From: Pirellulaceae bacterium | GTDB taxonomy: Bacteria > Planctomycetota > Planctomycetia > Pirellulales > Pirellulaceae | Length of the DNA: 64,000 nt | Reading direction: 5' to 3' | NCBI GenBank assembly: GCA_023382975.1 | Contig: JAHDXO010000005.1 | Span: 44,876-108,875 of the forward strand | Shown here: positions 1-45,990 of the stretch, one piece after another | How positions within the stretch are numbered: the stretch's first letter is position 1 | Layout: the number at the start of each line of letters is the position of its first letter | Position numbers and translations under genes: made by a program | The notes under the pieces: model-generated | Databases searched by the model: none | What the model was told of the DNA's origin: nothing | What the model saw: only the letters and a program-made list of their open reading frames with translations

Positions 1-527
1 CCGGCAAGAAGAATATCTTGGAAGGCAGCAAAGCGGGGCTCACGTCCAAGGAGACCGAGATCAAACTGACCAACGTGGCCCGCGCCAGCCTGGAGGAATT
101 GCTGGACGACTACTACGATTATCTCCGCGCCCGCGATCTTCCGATTTGGGACAAGGATTCCCGCGAGGCCAAGTATGTCCGCCAACTCGGCCGCAAGACG
201 CCGCAGACGTACGAGAACTATCGCGAGTTCGTCGAGACGCGTCCGCCCGAGGTCGTCGCCAACATCGCCATCTGCCTGATCCACCAGACCAACTTTCTGA
301 TCGACCAGCAGCTTCGGCGTCTGGAACAGGATTTCGTGGAACAAGGCGGGTTGCGCGAGCGCATGACCCGCGTCCGCACCGCCTACCGCAGCGCGAAACC
401 GAGCCGACCCGCCAGCCATTCAACCTCGAACGACCGCCCCCAGGAAAAGCCTCCCGACACTCCTACCTCGCCTAATTCCCATTCCTCCCAAACCCGCAAG
501 CCCGGACCCTCCGGAGGCGAACGATGA
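1..527 (+). CDS. 5'-truncated CDS (frame 3..527) running off the left edge of the window. Probably a four-helix-bundle (23S rRNA IVS-like) protein with a '4HB suffix' domain, of the kind often embedded in Type I R-M operons between hsdM and hsdS.
   Basis: The frame is open from position 3 with no start codon inside the window. Its TGA stop overlaps the hsdS ATG (ATGA at 524-527). The sequence NVARASLEELLDDYYDYLRARDLPIWD...IHQTNFLIDQQLRRLEQDF resembles the 4HB-suffix family from memory; I could not run a search. Confidence 0.4.
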   Translation, partial: GKKNILEGSKAGLTSKETEIKLTNVARASLEELLDDYYDYLRARDLPIWDKDSREAKYVRQLGRKTPQTYENYREFVETRPPEVVANIAICLIHQTNFLIDQQLRRLEQDFVEQGGLRERMTRVRTAYRSAKPSRPASHSTSNDRPQEKPPDTPTSPNSHSSQTRKPGPSGGER

Positions 528-1820: not shown

Positions 1821-4214
1821 ATGAACGAAGCCGAGACCCGAGCGGAGTATATCGATCCGGCGCTGGCGGCGGCGGGCTGGGGGGTGGTCGAGGGCAGCCA
1901 GATCCGGCGCGAGTACCCGATTACGCTGGGGCGGTTGGAAGGCTACGGACGGCGTGCCAAGCAATTGATGGCGGATTACGTGCTGGTGTACCGGAACACG
2001 AAGCTGGCGGTGGTCGAGGCGAAAGCGTGGGACGAGGAACTGACCGAGGGCGTGGCTCAAGCCAAGCAGTACGCCGGGAAACTGGCCATCCGCTTCGCCT
2101 ATTCGTCCAACGGGCAAGGCGTCTACGGCATCGACATGCAGGAAGGGACCGAGGGCGAGATCGACCGGTTCCCGACGCCCGACGAACTGTGGAACTCGAC
2201 CTTCGCCGCGCCGAACGCCTGGCGCGACCGGTTTGCCGCCGTGCCGTTCGAGGACAAGGGCGGGTACTTCCAGCCTCGTTACTATCAGGACATCGCGATC
2301 CAGCGCGTCCTAGAGGCGATCGGCATGGGCCGGAACCGCATCCTGCTGACGCTGGCCACCGGCACGGGCAAGACGTTCATCGCGTTTCAGATCGGTTGGA
2401 AACTGTTCTACAGCCGCTGGAATCTGGCGGAGTGGAACGCGGACGGCGATCCGTCGCGACGTCCCCGCATCCTGTTTCTGGCCGACCGCAACATCCTGGC
2501 GAACCAGGCGTTCAACGACTTCTCGCCCTTCCCCGAAGACGCACTGGTGCGGATCGACCCGGACAGCATCCGCAAGCGGGGCAAGGTGCCCAGGAACGGC
2601 AGCCTGTTCTTCACGATCTTCCAAACGTTCATGAGCGGCCCGCCGAAGAACGGGCAGCCCTCGCCCTACTTCGGCGACTACCCGTCCGACTTCTTCGACT
2701 TCATCGTGATCGACGAATGCCATCGGGGCGGAGCCAACGACGAGAGCACTTGGCGCGGCATCTTGGAGTACTTCGCGCCGGCTGTGCAGCTCGGCTTGAC
2801 CGCCACGCCCAAACGGCAGGACAACGTGGACACCTACGCCTATTTCGGCGAGCCGGTGTTCATCTACTCGCTCAAGGAAGGCATCAACGACGGCTTCCTG
2901 ACGCCGTTCAAGGTCAAGCAGATCCAGACCACGCTGGACGAGTATGTCTACACGTCCGACGACACGCTGGTCGAAGGCCAGATCGAGGCGGGCAAGGTCT
3001 ACGACGAACCGGACTTCAACAGGATCATCGAGATCCGGGAGCGCGAGCAGCACCGCGTCAAGCTGTTCATGGAGGCGATCGACCAGCGGGAAGAGACGCT
3101 GGTGTTCTGCGCCACGCAGGCGCACGCACTGCTGGTCCGCGACTTGGTTAACCAGATGAAAACCAGCACGGATCCGAACTAATGCCACCGGGTCACGGCG
3201 GACGACGGGGCACTGGGCGAACAGCATTTGCGGGATTTCCAGGACAACGAGAAGACGATCCCGACGATCCTGACGACCTCGCAGAAACTGTCCACCGGCG
3301 TGGATGCCCGCAACATCCGCAACATTGTGCTGATGCGGTCGGTCAACTCGATCATCGAGTTCAAGCAGATCATCGGCCGCGGCACGCGGCTGTACGACGG
3401 CAAGGACTACTTCACGATCTACGACTTCGTCAAGGCGCACCACCACTTCCGCGACCCCGAATGGGACGGCGAACCGGAGCCGGAAGATGTTTGCCCGAAG
3501 TGCGGCCAACAGCCGTGCCAGTGCGAGCGGCAACCGCCCAAGGTCTGCGAGCGGTGCGGGCAACGGCCGTGCGTGTGCGTCAAGGAACCGTGCCAGAAAT
3601 GCGGCAACTCGCCGTGCGAGTGCAAGAAGAAGGCGAAAGTCAAGCTTGCCGACGGCAAGGAGCGACGCATTCAGCACATGATGGTGACCAGCTATTGGCA
3701 CCCGGATGGAACACCGATGTCGGCCCAGCAGTTCCTGGAATTGCTGTACGGCAAGCTGCCCGACTTCTTCCAGGACGAAGCCGAACTGCGTGCCCTGTGG
3801 AGTGCCCCAGACACCCGCGCCAAGCTGCTGGCCGGGTTGGCCGAAAAGGGATTCGGGCCGGACCAGATGGCCGAGATGCAGCGGATCATCGATGCCGAGA
3901 AAAGCGATCTGTTCGACGTGCTCGCCTACGTGGCCTACGCCCGACCGGCGATCACCCGCGAGGAGCGGGCGGCGATTGCCAAGGTAGAAATCAGCCAGCG
4001 TTTCAATTCCAAGCAGCAAGCCTTCCTGGACTTCGTGTTGGCGCATTACGTCAGCGAAGGGGTGTACGAGCTGGACCAGGAAAAGCTCACCCCGCTGCTG
4101 CGTCTGCGCTACAACAACTCGATCGCCGACGCCATCGCCGACCTGGGCCGCCCGGAAGAGATCGGCACCGTGTTCGCAGGCTTCCAACGCTATCTGTACG
4201 AGATTGCGGTGTGA
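1821..4214 (+). pseudogene. hsdR: Type I restriction enzyme R subunit HsdR (DEAD/DEAH helicase-nuclease), interrupted by a single in-frame TAA at 3180-3182. It also carries a triple Cys-rich repeat in its C-terminal region.
   Basis: The N-terminus MNEAETRAEYIDPALAAAGW is the canonical HsdR start. The ATP-binding motif LATGTGKT, DEAH-box motif DECHRGG, and helicase motif VI (QIIGRGTRL) are all present. ORFs 1800..3182 and 3228..4214 are in the same frame and separated only by TAA. Read-through gives ...TDPN*CHRVTADDGALGEQHLRDFQDNEKTIPTILTTSQKLSTGVD..., a contiguous HsdR sequence. Confidence 0.85.
3489..3630 (+). repeat. Three tandem ~42-nt coding repeats inside hsdR that encode a Cys-rich motif, CxxCGxxPCxC, three times (zinc-ribbon-like).
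   Basis: Translation: CPKCGQQPCQCER / CERCGQRPCVCVK / CQKCGNSPCECKK. The repeats sit directly after helicase motif VI. Confidence 0.7.
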
Positions 4215-4298: not shown

Positions 4299-4314
4299 CT
4301 GGGGTTCCTGCAAG

Positions 4315-4388
4315 TGGGCGACACGGGACTCGAACCTGTGACCTCCGCCGTGTGAAGACGGCGCTCTAACCAACTGAGCTAGTCGCCC
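4315..4388 (-). tRNA. tRNA-Val, anticodon CAC.
   Basis: Reverse complement: GGGCGAC-TA-GCTC-AGTTGGTTA-GAGC-G-CCGTC-TTCACAC-GGCGG-AGGTC-ACAGG-TTCGAGT-CCCGT-GTCGCCC-A. The cloverleaf has a 7-bp acceptor stem, T-loop TTCGAGT, U33, and A37. One A-C mismatch lies in the T-stem. CCA is not encoded. Confidence 0.8.
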
Positions 4389-5814: not shown

Positions 5815-5886
5815 CTACCCGGCCAGGACTCGAACCTGGACTAAGGGAGCCAAAATCCCTAGTGCTGCCAATTACACCACCGGGTA
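5815..5886 (-). tRNA. tRNA-Gln, anticodon UUG.
   Basis: Reverse complement: TACCCGG-TG-GTGT-AATTGGCA-GCAC-T-AGGGA-TTTTGGC-TCCCT-TAGT-CCAGG-TTCGAGT-CCTGG-CCGGGTA-G. It has the U1-A72 pair and G73 discriminator typical of bacterial tRNA-Gln, and the anticodon loop is UUUUGGC. Confidence 0.85.
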
Positions 5887-6154: not shown

Positions 6155-6640
6155 TCAAGGACGCTGATAGGTCCCGATCAATTCGCCGCGGTCCAGGATA
6201 TGATCGCGCATGGCGTACTCGACGGCCGCTTTGTCCACGCCCGGATGGAGACCGAGATCGCAGTCTACCGCGTACAGCTTGAAGTGGTAGTGATGGACGC
6301 CGTGCCGGGCCGGCGGAGCCGGGCCGCGATAGCCAGTCGTCCGTCCCGATGTCCACGAGTTACGGCCTTGAAAGGCCTGGACGGGCAACTCGATCCGCGT
6401 TGCCGTTGGCATCCCTTCGGGCAATTCACTGACCGAGGCGGGCAGGTGGTAGAGCACCCAGTGAACCCAGGGCTGAGTTGTCGGGGCATCGGGATCGTCG
6501 CAAATCAACACCAACTCGACCGACCCTTCGGGAACATCCTCCCAACGCAGGTCGGGTGAGACGTCCTCGCCGTCGCCGGTGAACCTGCGTGGAATCGCTG
6601 CGCCGTTGGCGAAGGCGGTACTGGAGATTTGGATGGTCAT
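6155..6640 (-). CDS. YbhB/YbcL-family (PEBP / Raf-kinase-inhibitor-like) protein.
   Basis: The PEBP signature ...DPDAP...HWVLY...GPAPP..HHYHFKLYA is present. The start MTIQISS at 6640 forms an ATGA overlap with the stop of the upstream PSP1-like gene. Confidence 0.75.
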   Translation of the reverse strand: MTIQISSTAFANGAAIPRRFTGDGEDVSPDLRWEDVPEGSVELVLICDDPDAPTTQPWVHWVLYHLPASVSELPEGMPTATRIELPVQAFQGRNSWTSGRTTGYRGPAPPARHGVHHYHFKLYAVDCDLGLHPGVDKAAVEYAMRDHILDRGELIGTYQRP

Positions 6641-7395
6641 CGTGTCGTGCTCCCTGTCGGTGGAGAATCTGGATGAAGCCGTTTGCGTTTGCGGCAGGAT
6701 TCGGCTGCCGCACAGACCGCGCAATCGCTGGCGCTGCCGCAGCCTCGCCGCGACGATGGAGCGCGACCGGTCGAGCCCGCCGGGATGCCGCCGCTGCTGA
6801 TCTCGTCGCCGCAGCCGAAATCCTTGCAGCCACTATCGCCGCAGCCGGGATCGCTACAACCGGTTGCGTGGCATCCGCATTCTTCGCAGACGTGGTCTTC
6901 GCCATCGCTGCCCTCTTCGCCGTCGCCGACTGGCTGGCGTTCAATCGGCCGGAAATGCACTTGGGTGTGAAACGTACGCGCAAGCCGCAAACGCAAGGAT
7001 TCGCTTTGCGGCGGCACTTGATCGGCGAAGTAGAAGTACAGTGCCGTGCCATCGAACAGCGGCTCCGCATCGATCAAGATCGCCGACGACAAACGGTTCC
7101 GCTTCAAATCCTGTTGGCACGAGCGAAACGCGGAATCTCGTCGCACACGGAGGATGGCCAGATGGGCGTCGTCCGCTGGCAACAGTGGCCGCAAGACATT
7201 GCCGGCTTCCGCGCCTTCGGGCAGCTCCACCGTCGACAGAACCTCGCCCACTTCCACGCCGCGTTCGGTTCGACAGATCACCTTGGTCAATCGTGGATAG
7301 TCCGCGTTACCGGCCGCCACAAACGGACGTACGCACCCCAATACCCCGATCCGAATGAGAAGCTGCTTGGTCACTCGCGAGTTTTCCCGAATCAT
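6637..7395 (-). CDS. PSP1 C-terminal-domain protein (RicT/YaaT-like) with an atypical Cys-rich tail.
   Basis: VICRTERGVEVGEVL and ALYFYFADQV...LRLRLARTFHTQVHFRPI align, from memory, with B. subtilis YaaT (VIVETVRGIEYGQVV and [33 protein letters not shown]). The C-terminus CEECGCHATGCSDPGCGDSGCKDFGCGDE replaces the usual CGR.LCC motif. An ATG is confirmed at 7395. Confidence 0.55.
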   Translation of the reverse strand: MIRENSRVTKQLLIRIGVLGCVRPFVAAGNADYPRLTKVICRTERGVEVGEVLSTVELPEGAEAGNVLRPLLPADDAHLAILRVRRDSAFRSCQQDLKRNRLSSAILIDAEPLFDGTALYFYFADQVPPQSESLRLRLARTFHTQVHFRPIERQPVGDGEEGSDGEDHVCEECGCHATGCSDPGCGDSGCKDFGCGDEISSGGIPAGSTGRAPSSRRGCGSASDCAVCAAAESCRKRKRLHPDSPPTGSTTR

Positions 7396-44298: not shown

Positions 44299-45990
44299 AT
44301 GAATGCTCCGTTGAATTGGAACAGCAGGAACCTGACGCACGGTTGGCAGCGCGGCGTCACCGCGTTTTACTATGGACTGGGACTGACCGAGGCGGATTTT
44401 GACAAGCCGCAGATCGGGATCGGCGTGCCGTTGCTGGACGGGAATCTCTGCAACGTCCACGCCTACGACCTGGCTCAGCGGATCGCGGACGGTTGCCGCC
44501 GCGCGGACATGATCGGTTTTCCGTTCGGCGTGCCCGCGGTCAGTGACAACATCACGCAAGGGCACGAAGGCGGCAACGCCAGTCTTCCGTCCCGCAACAT
44601 GATCGCCAACGGGGCCGAGTGCGTGGTCAGCGCGCACGGCTACGACGCGTTGATCGGACTGCACCACTGCGACAAGAACGGTCCCGGATTCGCCATGGCG
44701 CTGGCCCGCATGAATTATCCGGGATTGCTGGTCAGCGGCGGCACGATCATGCCGGGTTGCCACCGGGGCGAGGAGATCTCGATCCTGGACGTCTACGACG
44801 CACAGGCCGCGGTCGCCGTCGGCAACATGGACCCGTCCGAAGCGGAAGAGATCCTGCGGACCGCCTGTCCCGGGGTCGGCGGTTGCGGCATTGCGGCTTC
44901 GTTCAACACCTGGGGCGTGGCCATGGAAGCCATCGGGCTGATGCTGCCCTACAGCAGCGCGATTCCGGCGATCGACGAAGCCAAGCACGAGGAATGCATC
45001 CGGGCCGGCCAAATCATGCATGGCGTGCTGCAGCAAGGACTACGCCCGCGCGACATCCTCACGCGCCGCGCGTTCGAGAACGCGGCGACGGCCATCGCCG
45101 CGATCGGCGGTTCGACCAACGGCGTGCTGCACCTGCTGGCGCTGGCTCGCGAAGCCGATGTCGAGTTCACCCTGCGCGACATGCAGGCAATTTTCCGCCG
45201 GACGCCCGTGTTGTGCTGTTTCGCCCCGCGCGGCAAGAAGACGATGGTCGACATGCACCGGATCGGCGGCACCCCGGTGTTGTTGAAGCACCTGTGGCGC
45301 GCCGGTCTGCTGGACGGCGACACCATGACCGTGGTGGGCAAGACGCTGGGCCAGGTCGCCGCCGAGGCGCCCGATCTACCCGACGACCAGCAACTGATCG
45401 TCCCGGCCGATGCCCCCTTCAAACCGTTTGCCGACGTGCAGATCTGTTTCGGCAACCTGGCGCCGGACGGCATCGTGTTCAAGGTTTCCAGCATGCAGGA
45501 GCCCCGGTTCCGCGGCGTCGCGTTGTGCTTCGACGACGCCAAGGACGTGGCCGACGCGGTCGAATCCAAGCGGATCCAGCCGGGCAGCGTCATCGTGTTG
45601 CGTTACCTGGGACCGGTCGCATCTGGAATGCCCGAGGTGTTGGTCGCATCGGCCGCACTGGCGGTTCCGGAACTGGACGGGAAAGTCGCCCTGGTCTCCG
45701 ACACCCGCGTGTCCGGCGTTTCGCACGGCGCGATCGGCGTGCATTGTGCGCCCGAGGCCGCGGTGGGGGGCGCCATCGCGCTGGTCGCCGACGGCGACGA
45801 AATCTCGTTCGACCTGCTGGCCGGCGAAGTCACGTTGCACGTCGACGACGCAGAACTCGGCCGCCGCCGTCAGCAGTGGCGGCCCATACCCCGCAAATCG
45901 CGCCGCGGTTACCTGCTGGACTTCGCCGCCACCGCCGCACAAGCCAACCACGGCTGTGTCAGCCGCATCCTGTACCCGGACTGCGCGTGA
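44299..45990 (+). CDS. ilvD: Dihydroxy-acid dehydratase (IlvD/EDD family).
   Basis: 563 aa. It has the Fe-S cluster Cys pattern (CDKNGPG...CPGVGGCG) and similarity to IlvD along the full length. Confidence 0.85.
   Translation: MNAPLNWNSRNLTHGWQRGVTAFYYGLGLTEADFDKPQIGIGVPLLDGNLCNVHAYDLAQRIADGCRRADMIGFPFGVPAVSDNITQGHEGGNASLPSRNMIANGAECVVSAHGYDALIGLHHCDKNGPGFAMALARMNYPGLLVSGGTIMPGCHRGEEISILDVYDAQAAVAVGNMDPSEAEEILRTACPGVGGCGIAASFNTWGVAMEAIGLMLPYSSAIPAIDEAKHEECIRAGQIMHGVLQQGLRPRDILTRRAFENAATAIAAIGGSTNGVLHLLALAREADVEFTLRDMQAIFRRTPVLCCFAPRGKKTMVDMHRIGGTPVLLKHLWRAGLLDGDTMTVVGKTLGQVAAEAPDLPDDQQLIVPADAPFKPFADVQICFGNLAPDGIVFKVSSMQEPRFRGVALCFDDAKDVADAVESKRIQPGSVIVLRYLGPVASGMPEVLVASAALAVPELDGKVALVSDTRVSGVSHGAIGVHCAPEAAVGGAIALVADGDEISFDLLAGEVTLHVDDAELGRRRQQWRPIPRKSRRGYLLDFAATAAQANHGCVSRILYPDCA

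Follow-up and report, generated by a model that had tools for sequence, protein, structure and literature searches.

We analyzed a window of 64,000 nt (the whole stretch of DNA, at positions 44,876 to 108,875 of the forward strand of contig JAHDXO010000005.1, assembly GCA_023382975.1, from a Pirellulaceae bacterium) and focused on hsdR, the gene of a type I restriction-modification (R-M) R subunit, whose product carries three consecutive Cys-rich repeats. These repeats occupy the linker between two domains of HsdR, and the Cys-rich form is almost certainly one of two common alleles of this hypervariable inter-domain linker. The type of linker is almost uncoupled from the rest of HsdR and, judging from aligned sequences, the linker behaves as a recombination cassette that is swapped between otherwise near-identical alleles. 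The enzyme itself is an ordinary type IB-like HsdR and no new mechanism is demonstrated here; the linker is its informative part.

The linker comprises 56 residues (EPEPEDV...KKKAK; 3471–3638, + strand, in window coordinates) between a WDG and a VKLADGK anchor. The HsdR residues encoded by 3489–3632, VCPKCGQQPCQCERQPPKVCERCGQRPCVCVKEPCQKCGNSPCECKKK, hold three Cys4 units, CPKCGQQPCQC (3492–3524, +), CERCGQRPCVC (3546–3578, +), and CQKCGNSPCEC (3591–3623, +). Each unit has 11 residues of the form C-x2-C-G-x2-P-C-x-C, with the Cys spacing C-x2-C-x4-C-x-C in all three. A preliminary description of this DNA had noticed three Cys-rich repeats with 12 Cys in about 45 residues and a Lys-rich segment behind them, and both are present: we count 12 Cys in 44 module residues (27%) versus 3 in the remaining 753 residues of HsdR, a clustering with a binomial probability of about 3e-19 at the background Cys frequency. 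The units are followed by a basic tail and a conserved anchor (KKKAKVKLADGK; 3624–3659, +), which are found in Cys-type and Cys-free alleles alike; the L, A, D, G, and K of the anchor are invariant in the homologue alignments.

The position of the module was defined by comparison with the Vibrio vulnificus HsdR fragment of PDB 3H1T, the only solved relative that was found, whose match in a PDB sequence search spans the motor and stops where the module begins. The alignment ends at DPDFDGYPEIEDE (chain residue 579), immediately ahead of the first Cys, and RecA-like domain 2 (RD2) in 3H1T extends from Ala372 to Val590 (PMC2777439). Because the 3H1T match ends at the first Cys unit and RD2 ends at Val590, the module is identified by this alignment as an inter-domain linker, running from the end of the motor to the VKLADGK anchor that precedes EcoEI_R_C. 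The latter is the helical C-terminal domain (3726–4199, +; Pfam PF08463, E=7.3e-31), with helices also in the AlphaFold2 (AF2) model. The earlier placement is supported in so far as the repeats lie past the helicase core and ahead of the helical C-terminal domain; they are not an insertion into the latter. Nor do the repeats come directly after helicase motif VI, as had been stated: the motif, QIIGRGTRL (3366–3392, +), read from the sequence and aligning to RD2 of 3H1T, ends 33 residues before the module starts.

We delimited the linker between W-D-G and V-K-L-A-D-G-K in 83 relatives from many phyla. Cys-type linkers (52–68 aa, 12–17 Cys) have three units in 42 of these sequences and four units in a further 3, one of these 45 being from E. 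coli, whereas the other 38 carry a Cys-free linker, mostly Pro-, Glu- or Asp-rich, with 0–1 Cys and a length of 34–41 aa in the close clade. The Cys-free linkers are about 20 residues shorter than the Cys-type ones. Intermediate Cys counts, of the kind that decayed linkers would show, were found in none of the 83 parsed linkers, which have either 0–1 or at least 12 Cys.

The flanks of the linker hardly distinguish the two types. Mean flank identity is 0.710 between Cys-type sequences, 0.738 between Cys-free sequences, and 0.719 between types, and the flanks of the closest pair with opposite linkers (L021 and L051) are 93% identical, about as similar as those of the closest pairs with the same linker. 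The nearest neighbour has the same linker state in 69% of cases compared with 50% in shuffles, and on a neighbour-joining tree built from 282 flank columns the linker state would have to change about 20 times, a number that is indicative only given the poor resolution of this tree. At the DNA level, four pairs with opposite linkers have an identity of about 85–95% in the flanks, become unalignable in the linker, and then recover. The collapse of identity has the same bounds in all four pairs, from TGGGACGGCGA(A/G)CC (WDGEP) to ATCAAGATCAAGCT (IKIKLADG). This combination, flank DNA about 90% identical around an unalignable linker with sharp bounds, is direct evidence of cassette swapping.

A protein database search with the 343-aa C-terminal part of HsdR as query returned 6660 homologues at E<1e-10, and among the best 120 of them (73–100% identity) at least three Cys4 units are present in 119; units of the canonical form CxxCGxxxCxC number three in 97 of these 120 proteins, four in two, and five in one. 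Aligned with one another, 106 of these 120 proteins show no change at any of the 12 Cys, against a mean column identity of 54%. A scan of GTDB with one genome per species gave at least 598 relatives, of which the best 80 were taken as loci; these belong to Planctomycetota, Verrucomicrobiota, Acidobacteriota, Nitrospirota, Alpha-, Beta-, and Gammaproteobacteria, and Desulfobacterota-like lineages, as well as to Bacteroidota, Spirochaetia, Elusimicrobiota, Cyanobium, and others. In Escherichia coli, the module (with three units) occurs in 1 of 5426 complete genomes, that of strain ET82 (WP_370621069.1, an intact HsdR, as is the Cys-type WP_221067419.1 of Methylomagnum ishizawai plasmid pRS11DPr4), and the one typical E. 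coli EcoAI-family HsdR that was examined has an acidic, Cys-free linker. Several HsdR members on plasmids likewise have acidic or Pro-rich linkers without Cys, and a homologue on a Segatella plasmid (Bacteroidota, 30% identity) carries two units. From this distribution, the Cys units are a standard feature of a large, multi-phylum, horizontally spread HsdR subfamily, which removes the novelty that the insertion had been given. The proposed comparison of repeat number across relatives shows mostly three units, with a range of 2–5.

The 120 best matches have one further property, in that their length does not exceed 596 aa, against the roughly 800 aa encoded by intact genes. A number of these proteins start at one internal site, M[VA]RI.P..IRKK (here LVRIDPDSIRKR), on contigs of up to 1.6 Mb. 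Systematic splitting of the gene was considered but appears unlikely, as intact open reading frames (ORFs) are present at most genome loci, and the short matches were provisionally taken as a property of the listing.

The anatomy of the unit was derived from a logo of 454 units in 157 distinct linkers, which reads C1, P2 (53%), x, C4, G5 (92%), x, x, P8 (92%), C9, x, C11. The spacing C-x2-C-x4-C-x-C was found in 454 of 465 parsed units, and the 4-residue loop is essentially invariant; this loop, G5, and P8 are conserved at 92–100%, and variation is found at the residues between the Cys. Spacers of 7 and then 4 residues are the usual arrangement between units, with a range of about 1–17. Three units are present in 144 of the 157 distinct linkers, with rare variants of two, four, or five, and these show that unit number shifts over long periods. 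The fixed geometry within units, the loose spacing between them, and the variation in their number from 2 to 5 together suggest that each unit is self-contained.

Signs of selection on the Cys were looked for at the codon level. At 42 genome loci, the Cys codons amount to 335 TGC and 169 TGT, and both codons occur at each of the 12 positions. Since these loci were picked by their Cys pattern, the non-circular evidence for selection on the Cys is the all-or-none Cys count of the parsed linkers. The DNA of the local units bears on their age: the copies have cores of 33–36 nt with 72–78% identity to the reference copy and start-to-start distances of 54 and 45 nt, not the three ~42-nt repeats reported before, and Tandem Repeats Finder detected no array at the Cys repeats in 3300–3800. 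The Cys units are old, diverged repeats and not a fresh product of slippage.

Structure prediction was applied to the 343-aa C-terminal part and to the module alone. In the AF2 model of the former, the EcoEI_R_C helices have a predicted local distance difference test (pLDDT) score of 74–92, and the module, with a pLDDT of 57–69, has no secondary structure; the model as a whole is poor (mean pLDDT 61.5) because it began inside RD2. The proposed structural check therefore returned a helical EcoEI_R_C and a module without helix or strand. The module alone (72 aa) was predicted with a mean pLDDT of 70.8, reaching 74–82 over the units, a predicted template modelling score of 0.28, and no DSSP elements. 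Such a prediction, with local structure but no global fold, fits beads on a string. Foldseek against PDB found nothing for the 343-aa model (best E=1.3) or the 72-aa module model (best E=7.8), and a PDB sequence search with the 48-aa core gave insignificant matches only, to the zinc ribbon of eL37 (E=0.11) and the metallothionein SmtA (E=7.8).

Domain databases were equally silent on the segment. Pfam gave one insignificant match on the 77-aa Cys segment (E=0.48), and this check, which had also been proposed earlier, identified no Pfam zinc-ribbon or metallothionein family on it. No paper in the literature searched describes Cys or zinc in HsdR, or the unit motif; in the HsdR and type I papers searched for these terms, zinc is unmentioned and no cysteine in HsdR is mentioned. 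The unit is widespread in databases and yet apparently undescribed and uncurated in the resources that were searched.

The same unit exists outside HsdR. Phmmer with the 48-aa core against 1.84 billion cluster representatives (E<=1e-3), a search that misses most HsdR carriers and is therefore no census, gave 12 matches, five of them HsdR fragments and seven unrelated proteins with 3–9 tandem copies of C-x2-C-G-x2-P-C-x-C. By eye, P0121 and P0132 have an N-terminal hydrophobic, lipoprotein-like leader with the units directly after it, the units of P0126 stand ahead of a hydrophobic anchor at the C-terminus, and P0129 combines an N-terminal hydrophobic leader with four units close to its C-terminal end. 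Where the units adjoin such leaders or anchors, they number 7–9 in tandem. P0122, a membrane protein, has a transglutaminase core. In P0124, which has Spy0128-type isopeptide domains, the units come before a sortase-like motif and a hydrophobic C-terminal anchor (both recognized by eye), and P0128 is an 80-aa protein made of three units. The named carriers are hypothetical proteins of metagenome-assembled genomes (MAGs) of Clostridiales, Coriobacteriia, and Treponema. All seven lack a Pfam match over the repeat, and a homologue search with an acidic repeat of P0121 returned no candidates. In most of these putative surface or membrane proteins, the units hold the position of a stalk or spacer.

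Taken together, these observations lead us, on balance, to favour an exchangeable linker allele of metal-stapled beads that would act as a tether of the motor. The Cys allele of this tether would consist of three autonomous 11-residue Cys4 units, C-P-x-C-G-x-x-P-C-x-C, with short Pro-rich spacers and a basic tail. Each unit would chelate one metal ion, probably Zn2+, through four thiolates and, once bound to metal, would fold into a compact bead. Three such beads and the Pro-rich spacers would make a compact, semi-rigid, and probably protease-resistant tether by which the translocating motor stays joined to the C-terminal domain bound to the methyltransferase, a job that the Pro-rich linker would do equally in sister alleles. 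That the units bind metal is probable from their sequence pattern, and the metal-binding module of the preliminary description is to this extent plausible: the Cys pattern is invariant and a CPxCG-type knuckle starts the units, while the metal is something we infer. Hsp33 offers a precedent in which one zinc is bound jointly by a CxC and a CxxC pair. The position of the units and their interchangeability with Pro-rich linkers are what suggests a tether, and we would put the chances of a tether against those of a binding site at about even.

Several points weigh against this interpretation. The role of a tether assumes that EcoEI_R_C docks on the methyltransferase; the C-terminal region of HsdR was suggested as the methyltransferase contact, and this contact is not solved for type IB (PMC2777439). 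The C-x2-C-x4-C-x-C site is shorter than classical zinc sites; in place of one zinc per unit, knuckles of adjacent units may pair up, or the site may hold iron or a polynuclear cluster. The basic tail, together with the precedent of zinc fingers at the equal position in RadD, may also fit a contact with DNA. Regarding the data themselves, the poor resolution of the 282-column tree counts against a literal reading of its state changes, the 106-sequence alignment omitted four atypical sequences, and the loci of the codon count were chosen by their Cys pattern. Finally, the local hsdR is disrupted, and no statement on function in this organism follows from it.

The alternative that survives best, although we consider it unlikely, is that the units are a DNA- or partner-binding zinc-finger array like that of RadD, gripping DNA or contacting HsdM or HsdS. 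RadD, an E. coli SF2 DNA-repair ATPase (PDB 7R7J/6JDE), is the nearest non-HsdR relative of the motor, with the NCBIfam RadD model matching at E=4.2e-21 over residues 297–613, the module included. It has tandem Cys4 sites after RD2, as HsdR has, and in the PDB sequence of RadD the VFCPACG knuckle of zinc finger 1 (ZF1) aligns onto DVCPKCG, sharing CPxCG as first knuckle. ZF1 and ZF2 of RadD come right after RD2, a Cys of ZF2 is needed in vivo, and a role in DNA binding was proposed (PMC9049331). The matching position and the Lys-rich tail that follows the units in HsdR would fit such an array. The sister alleles argue against it: with flanks up to 93% identical, they have a Pro-rich linker and no Cys, and because such near-identical alleles lack the Cys, the core mechanism can do without the units. 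The basic tail accompanies either linker type and is thus not specific to the Cys units, the freely varying residues between the Cys are ill-suited to a specific interface, and the same unit occurs in putative surface-protein stalks.

The geometry of the sites differs as well. The fingers of RadD are zinc ribbons with 10–23 residues between knuckles and with beta hairpins (C384, C387, C411, and C425 in ZF1; C434, C437, C448, and C451 in ZF2), whereas the HsdR unit has 11 residues, a CxC, a different spacing, and no predicted strands, and unlike the RadD fingers it can be removed or exchanged between close alleles. Nor are the repeats, which had been called zinc-ribbon-like, a classical zinc ribbon: a 4-residue loop and a CxC second half take the place of two CxxC knuckles at least about 10 residues apart, AF2 gives no strands, and no zinc-ribbon or metallothionein model of Pfam matches the module (at E<=1 for the zinc ribbons). 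A ribbon formed between neighbouring units, in the eL37-like register (E=0.11), may still be envisaged. Two other known Cys-rich types were considered and rejected. The module is embedded in an enzyme of about 800 aa, with no Pfam metallothionein match and E=7.8 to SmtA, and is thus no metallothionein; nor is it a DnaJ-type CxxCxGxG repeat, as the Gly comes right after the second Cys, there is no second Gly, and Pfam DnaJ_CXXCXGXG does not match.

Short Cys4 zinc knuckles and metallothionein-like clusters resemble the module in Cys density, the combination of CxxC and CxC, the absence of regular secondary structure, and probable ligation by thiolates, and the module may work like a short zinc knuckle. 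It is unlike them in being a strictly periodic 11-residue unit with conserved Gly and Pro, placed as a linker in an enzyme of 800 residues. With the Pro-rich linkers of sister HsdR alleles, it shares position, anchors, a similar span, and interchangeability by recombination; these have no Cys, are about 20 residues shorter, and presumably are extended as polyproline rather than stapled by metal. An HsdR lineage with two exchangeable tethers is a natural swap experiment on the coupling of motor and methyltransferase, and the pair bears on whether length, stiffness, or stability of the tether matters for translocation, cleavage, and restriction alleviation. The 11-residue Cys4 repeat could in addition be curated as a new repeat family.

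A quite improbable alternative is a redox or metal-availability switch, in which oxidation or loss of zinc would unfold the beads, lengthen or loosen the tether, and tune restriction under stress or shut it off, as one kind of restriction alleviation. Zinc-thiolate switches are known in Hsp33 and in ZAS-type anti-sigma factors, and twelve invariant thiols in a cytoplasmic protein and the maintenance of both linker alleles side by side would fit such a switch. Post-translational control of HsdR would fit as well, type IA and IB HsdR being subject to ClpXP-dependent restriction alleviation (PMC3874165). Linker type, however, had no obvious association with aerobic or anaerobic lineage at the 80 loci, judged by eye from genome titles, both types being found in both. 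For these data, a constitutive structural role is the simpler explanation.

It is highly improbable that the units hold, in place of zinc, iron of the rubredoxin type or an iron-sulfur cluster. Iron-sulfur clusters ligated by Cys exist in the nuclease-helicases AddB, Cas4, Dna2, and XPD, and CPxCG is also the knuckle of rubredoxin, so that four Cys per unit and a CPxCG knuckle would be compatible with iron. To our knowledge, the spacing C-x2-C-x4-C-x-C fits no familiar [4Fe-4S] or [2Fe-2S] motif; no Pfam iron-sulfur family matches, and a unit number of 2–5 with complete removal possible is unlike a catalytic cofactor. Least credible of all is a recent, neutral, and functionless expansion by replication slippage, as had been offered before, for although unit number varies from 2 to 5 among homologues and P0027 has four nearly identical CPKCGKRPCEC copies, the local DNA copies are diverged and unevenly spaced without a detectable array, and the three-unit form is kept across phyla with invariant Cys and synonymous codon turnover.

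A wider proposal can be put forward tentatively, as a conjecture that we hold with little confidence. The unit could be an undescribed, autonomously folding repeat, stapled by metal (by disulfides outside the cell), that serves as a modular stiff spacer in cytoplasmic machines and surface stalks alike. The Cys-bead and Pro-rich tethers would then form a dimorphism of long standing that selection maintains and recombination reshuffles, in which the tether sets either the mechanical coupling between motor and methyltransferase or the zinc, redox, or proteolytic sensitivity of restriction.

The hsdR gene in the window has the features of its family together with one defect. Its frame opens at 1800 (+), with a probable ATG start at 1821 (MNEAETRAEYIDPAL) and a stop at 4212–4214, and the translation of the frame 1800/1821–4214 (+) includes EDVCPKCGQQPCQCERQPPKVCERCGQRPCVCVKEPCQKCGNSPCECKKKAKVKLADGK. 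An in-frame TAA, overlooked in the preliminary description, interrupts it at 3180–3182 (+), reading DPN*CHRV where homologues have a Tyr (DPNYC; the consensus in the alignment of 106 homologues is DPNYCQRV). This codon divides the gene into a 5' part of about 453 aa (1821–3179, +), with the N-terminal nuclease region, RecA-like domain 1 (ResIII/DEAD), and the start of RD2, and a 3' part of 343 codons (3183–4214, +), with the remainder of RD2, the Cys-bead linker, EcoEI_R_C, and the stop codon. The NCBI annotation covers a 328-aa remainder only, entered as KJ000_04640, a hypothetical protein from a Pirellulaceae MAG. If the TAA does not stem from faulty assembly, hsdR is here probably a pseudogene, and because the TAA cuts the gene upstream of the Cys repeats, the Cys module in this genome has probably lost its place in a functional enzyme. 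Most homologous loci are intact, with ORFs of about 780–830 aa, and differ in this from the local gene, which lacks an uninterrupted frame.

Though interrupted, the local protein is an HsdR of the EcoAI/FtnUII family (type IB-like). With the TAA replaced by X and residues numbered from the 1800 start, it scored 809.6 bits against a cutoff of 550 with NCBIfam NF046051 (EcoAI/FtnUII family type I R subunit), residues 8–801 aligning to positions 1–768 of the 768-position profile. Pfam identified ResIII (E=2.3e-33, residues 157–339), Helicase_C (E=3.9e-05, 424–530), and EcoEI_R_C (643–800), and HSDR_N was weak (22.7 bits versus a cutoff of 25.1). In common with other members of the family (type IB, e.g., EcoAI, EcoEI; PDB 3H1T), the protein has the domain order nuclease, two RecA-like domains, linker, EcoEI_R_C, its linker lies between D-P-E-W-D-G and V-K-L-A-D-G-K, and hsdS adjoins. 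It is unlike them in its three Cys4 units and its stop codon, the one typical E. coli member examined having a Cys-free linker.

The specificity subunit gene hsdS (524–1810, +) is located directly 5' of hsdR and was recognized by Pfam Methylase_S (E=4.8e-32, in two stretches); with the NCBIfam type I specificity subunit model it gave E=2e-46, under the cutoff of that model. Just 5' of hsdS, a gene at 18–527 (+) encodes a four-helix-bundle suffix domain (TIGR04258, E=1.2e-24). No hsdM was found inside the window, and it may lie beyond the window start; the suffix-domain gene presumably sits between that hsdM and hsdS.

Interruptions of hsdR were also seen elsewhere. Among the 80 homologous genes from species-representative genomes, about 10 are interrupted as well (L034, L020, L021, L032, L042, L076, L084, L088, L089); L034 has a stop codon within a Cys unit of the linker (CAKCG*RPCAC), and L021 holds a run of N. 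They are mostly from MAGs, in which assembly error and decay are indistinguishable. Extra genes lie between hsdS and hsdR at the homologous loci L001 (247–943), L003 (206–927), and L008 (2155–4008). On Methylomagnum and Aquincola plasmids, a Phd/YefM antitoxin and PIN toxin pair is found in this place, and in E. coli ET82 a DUF262 gene.

Downstream of hsdR, a tRNA-Val(CAC) gene lies at 4314–4388 (−), 100 nt past the stop codon, and a tRNA-Gln(TTG) gene beyond it at 5815–5886 (−). Genes for tRNA are a frequent boundary of integrated islands, and the local R-M locus ends beside them. Further on, the ORF listing includes a 252-aa frame at 6637–7395 (−) whose C-terminal tail, CEECGCHATGCSDPGCGDSGCKDFGCGDE, is also Cys- and Gly-rich.

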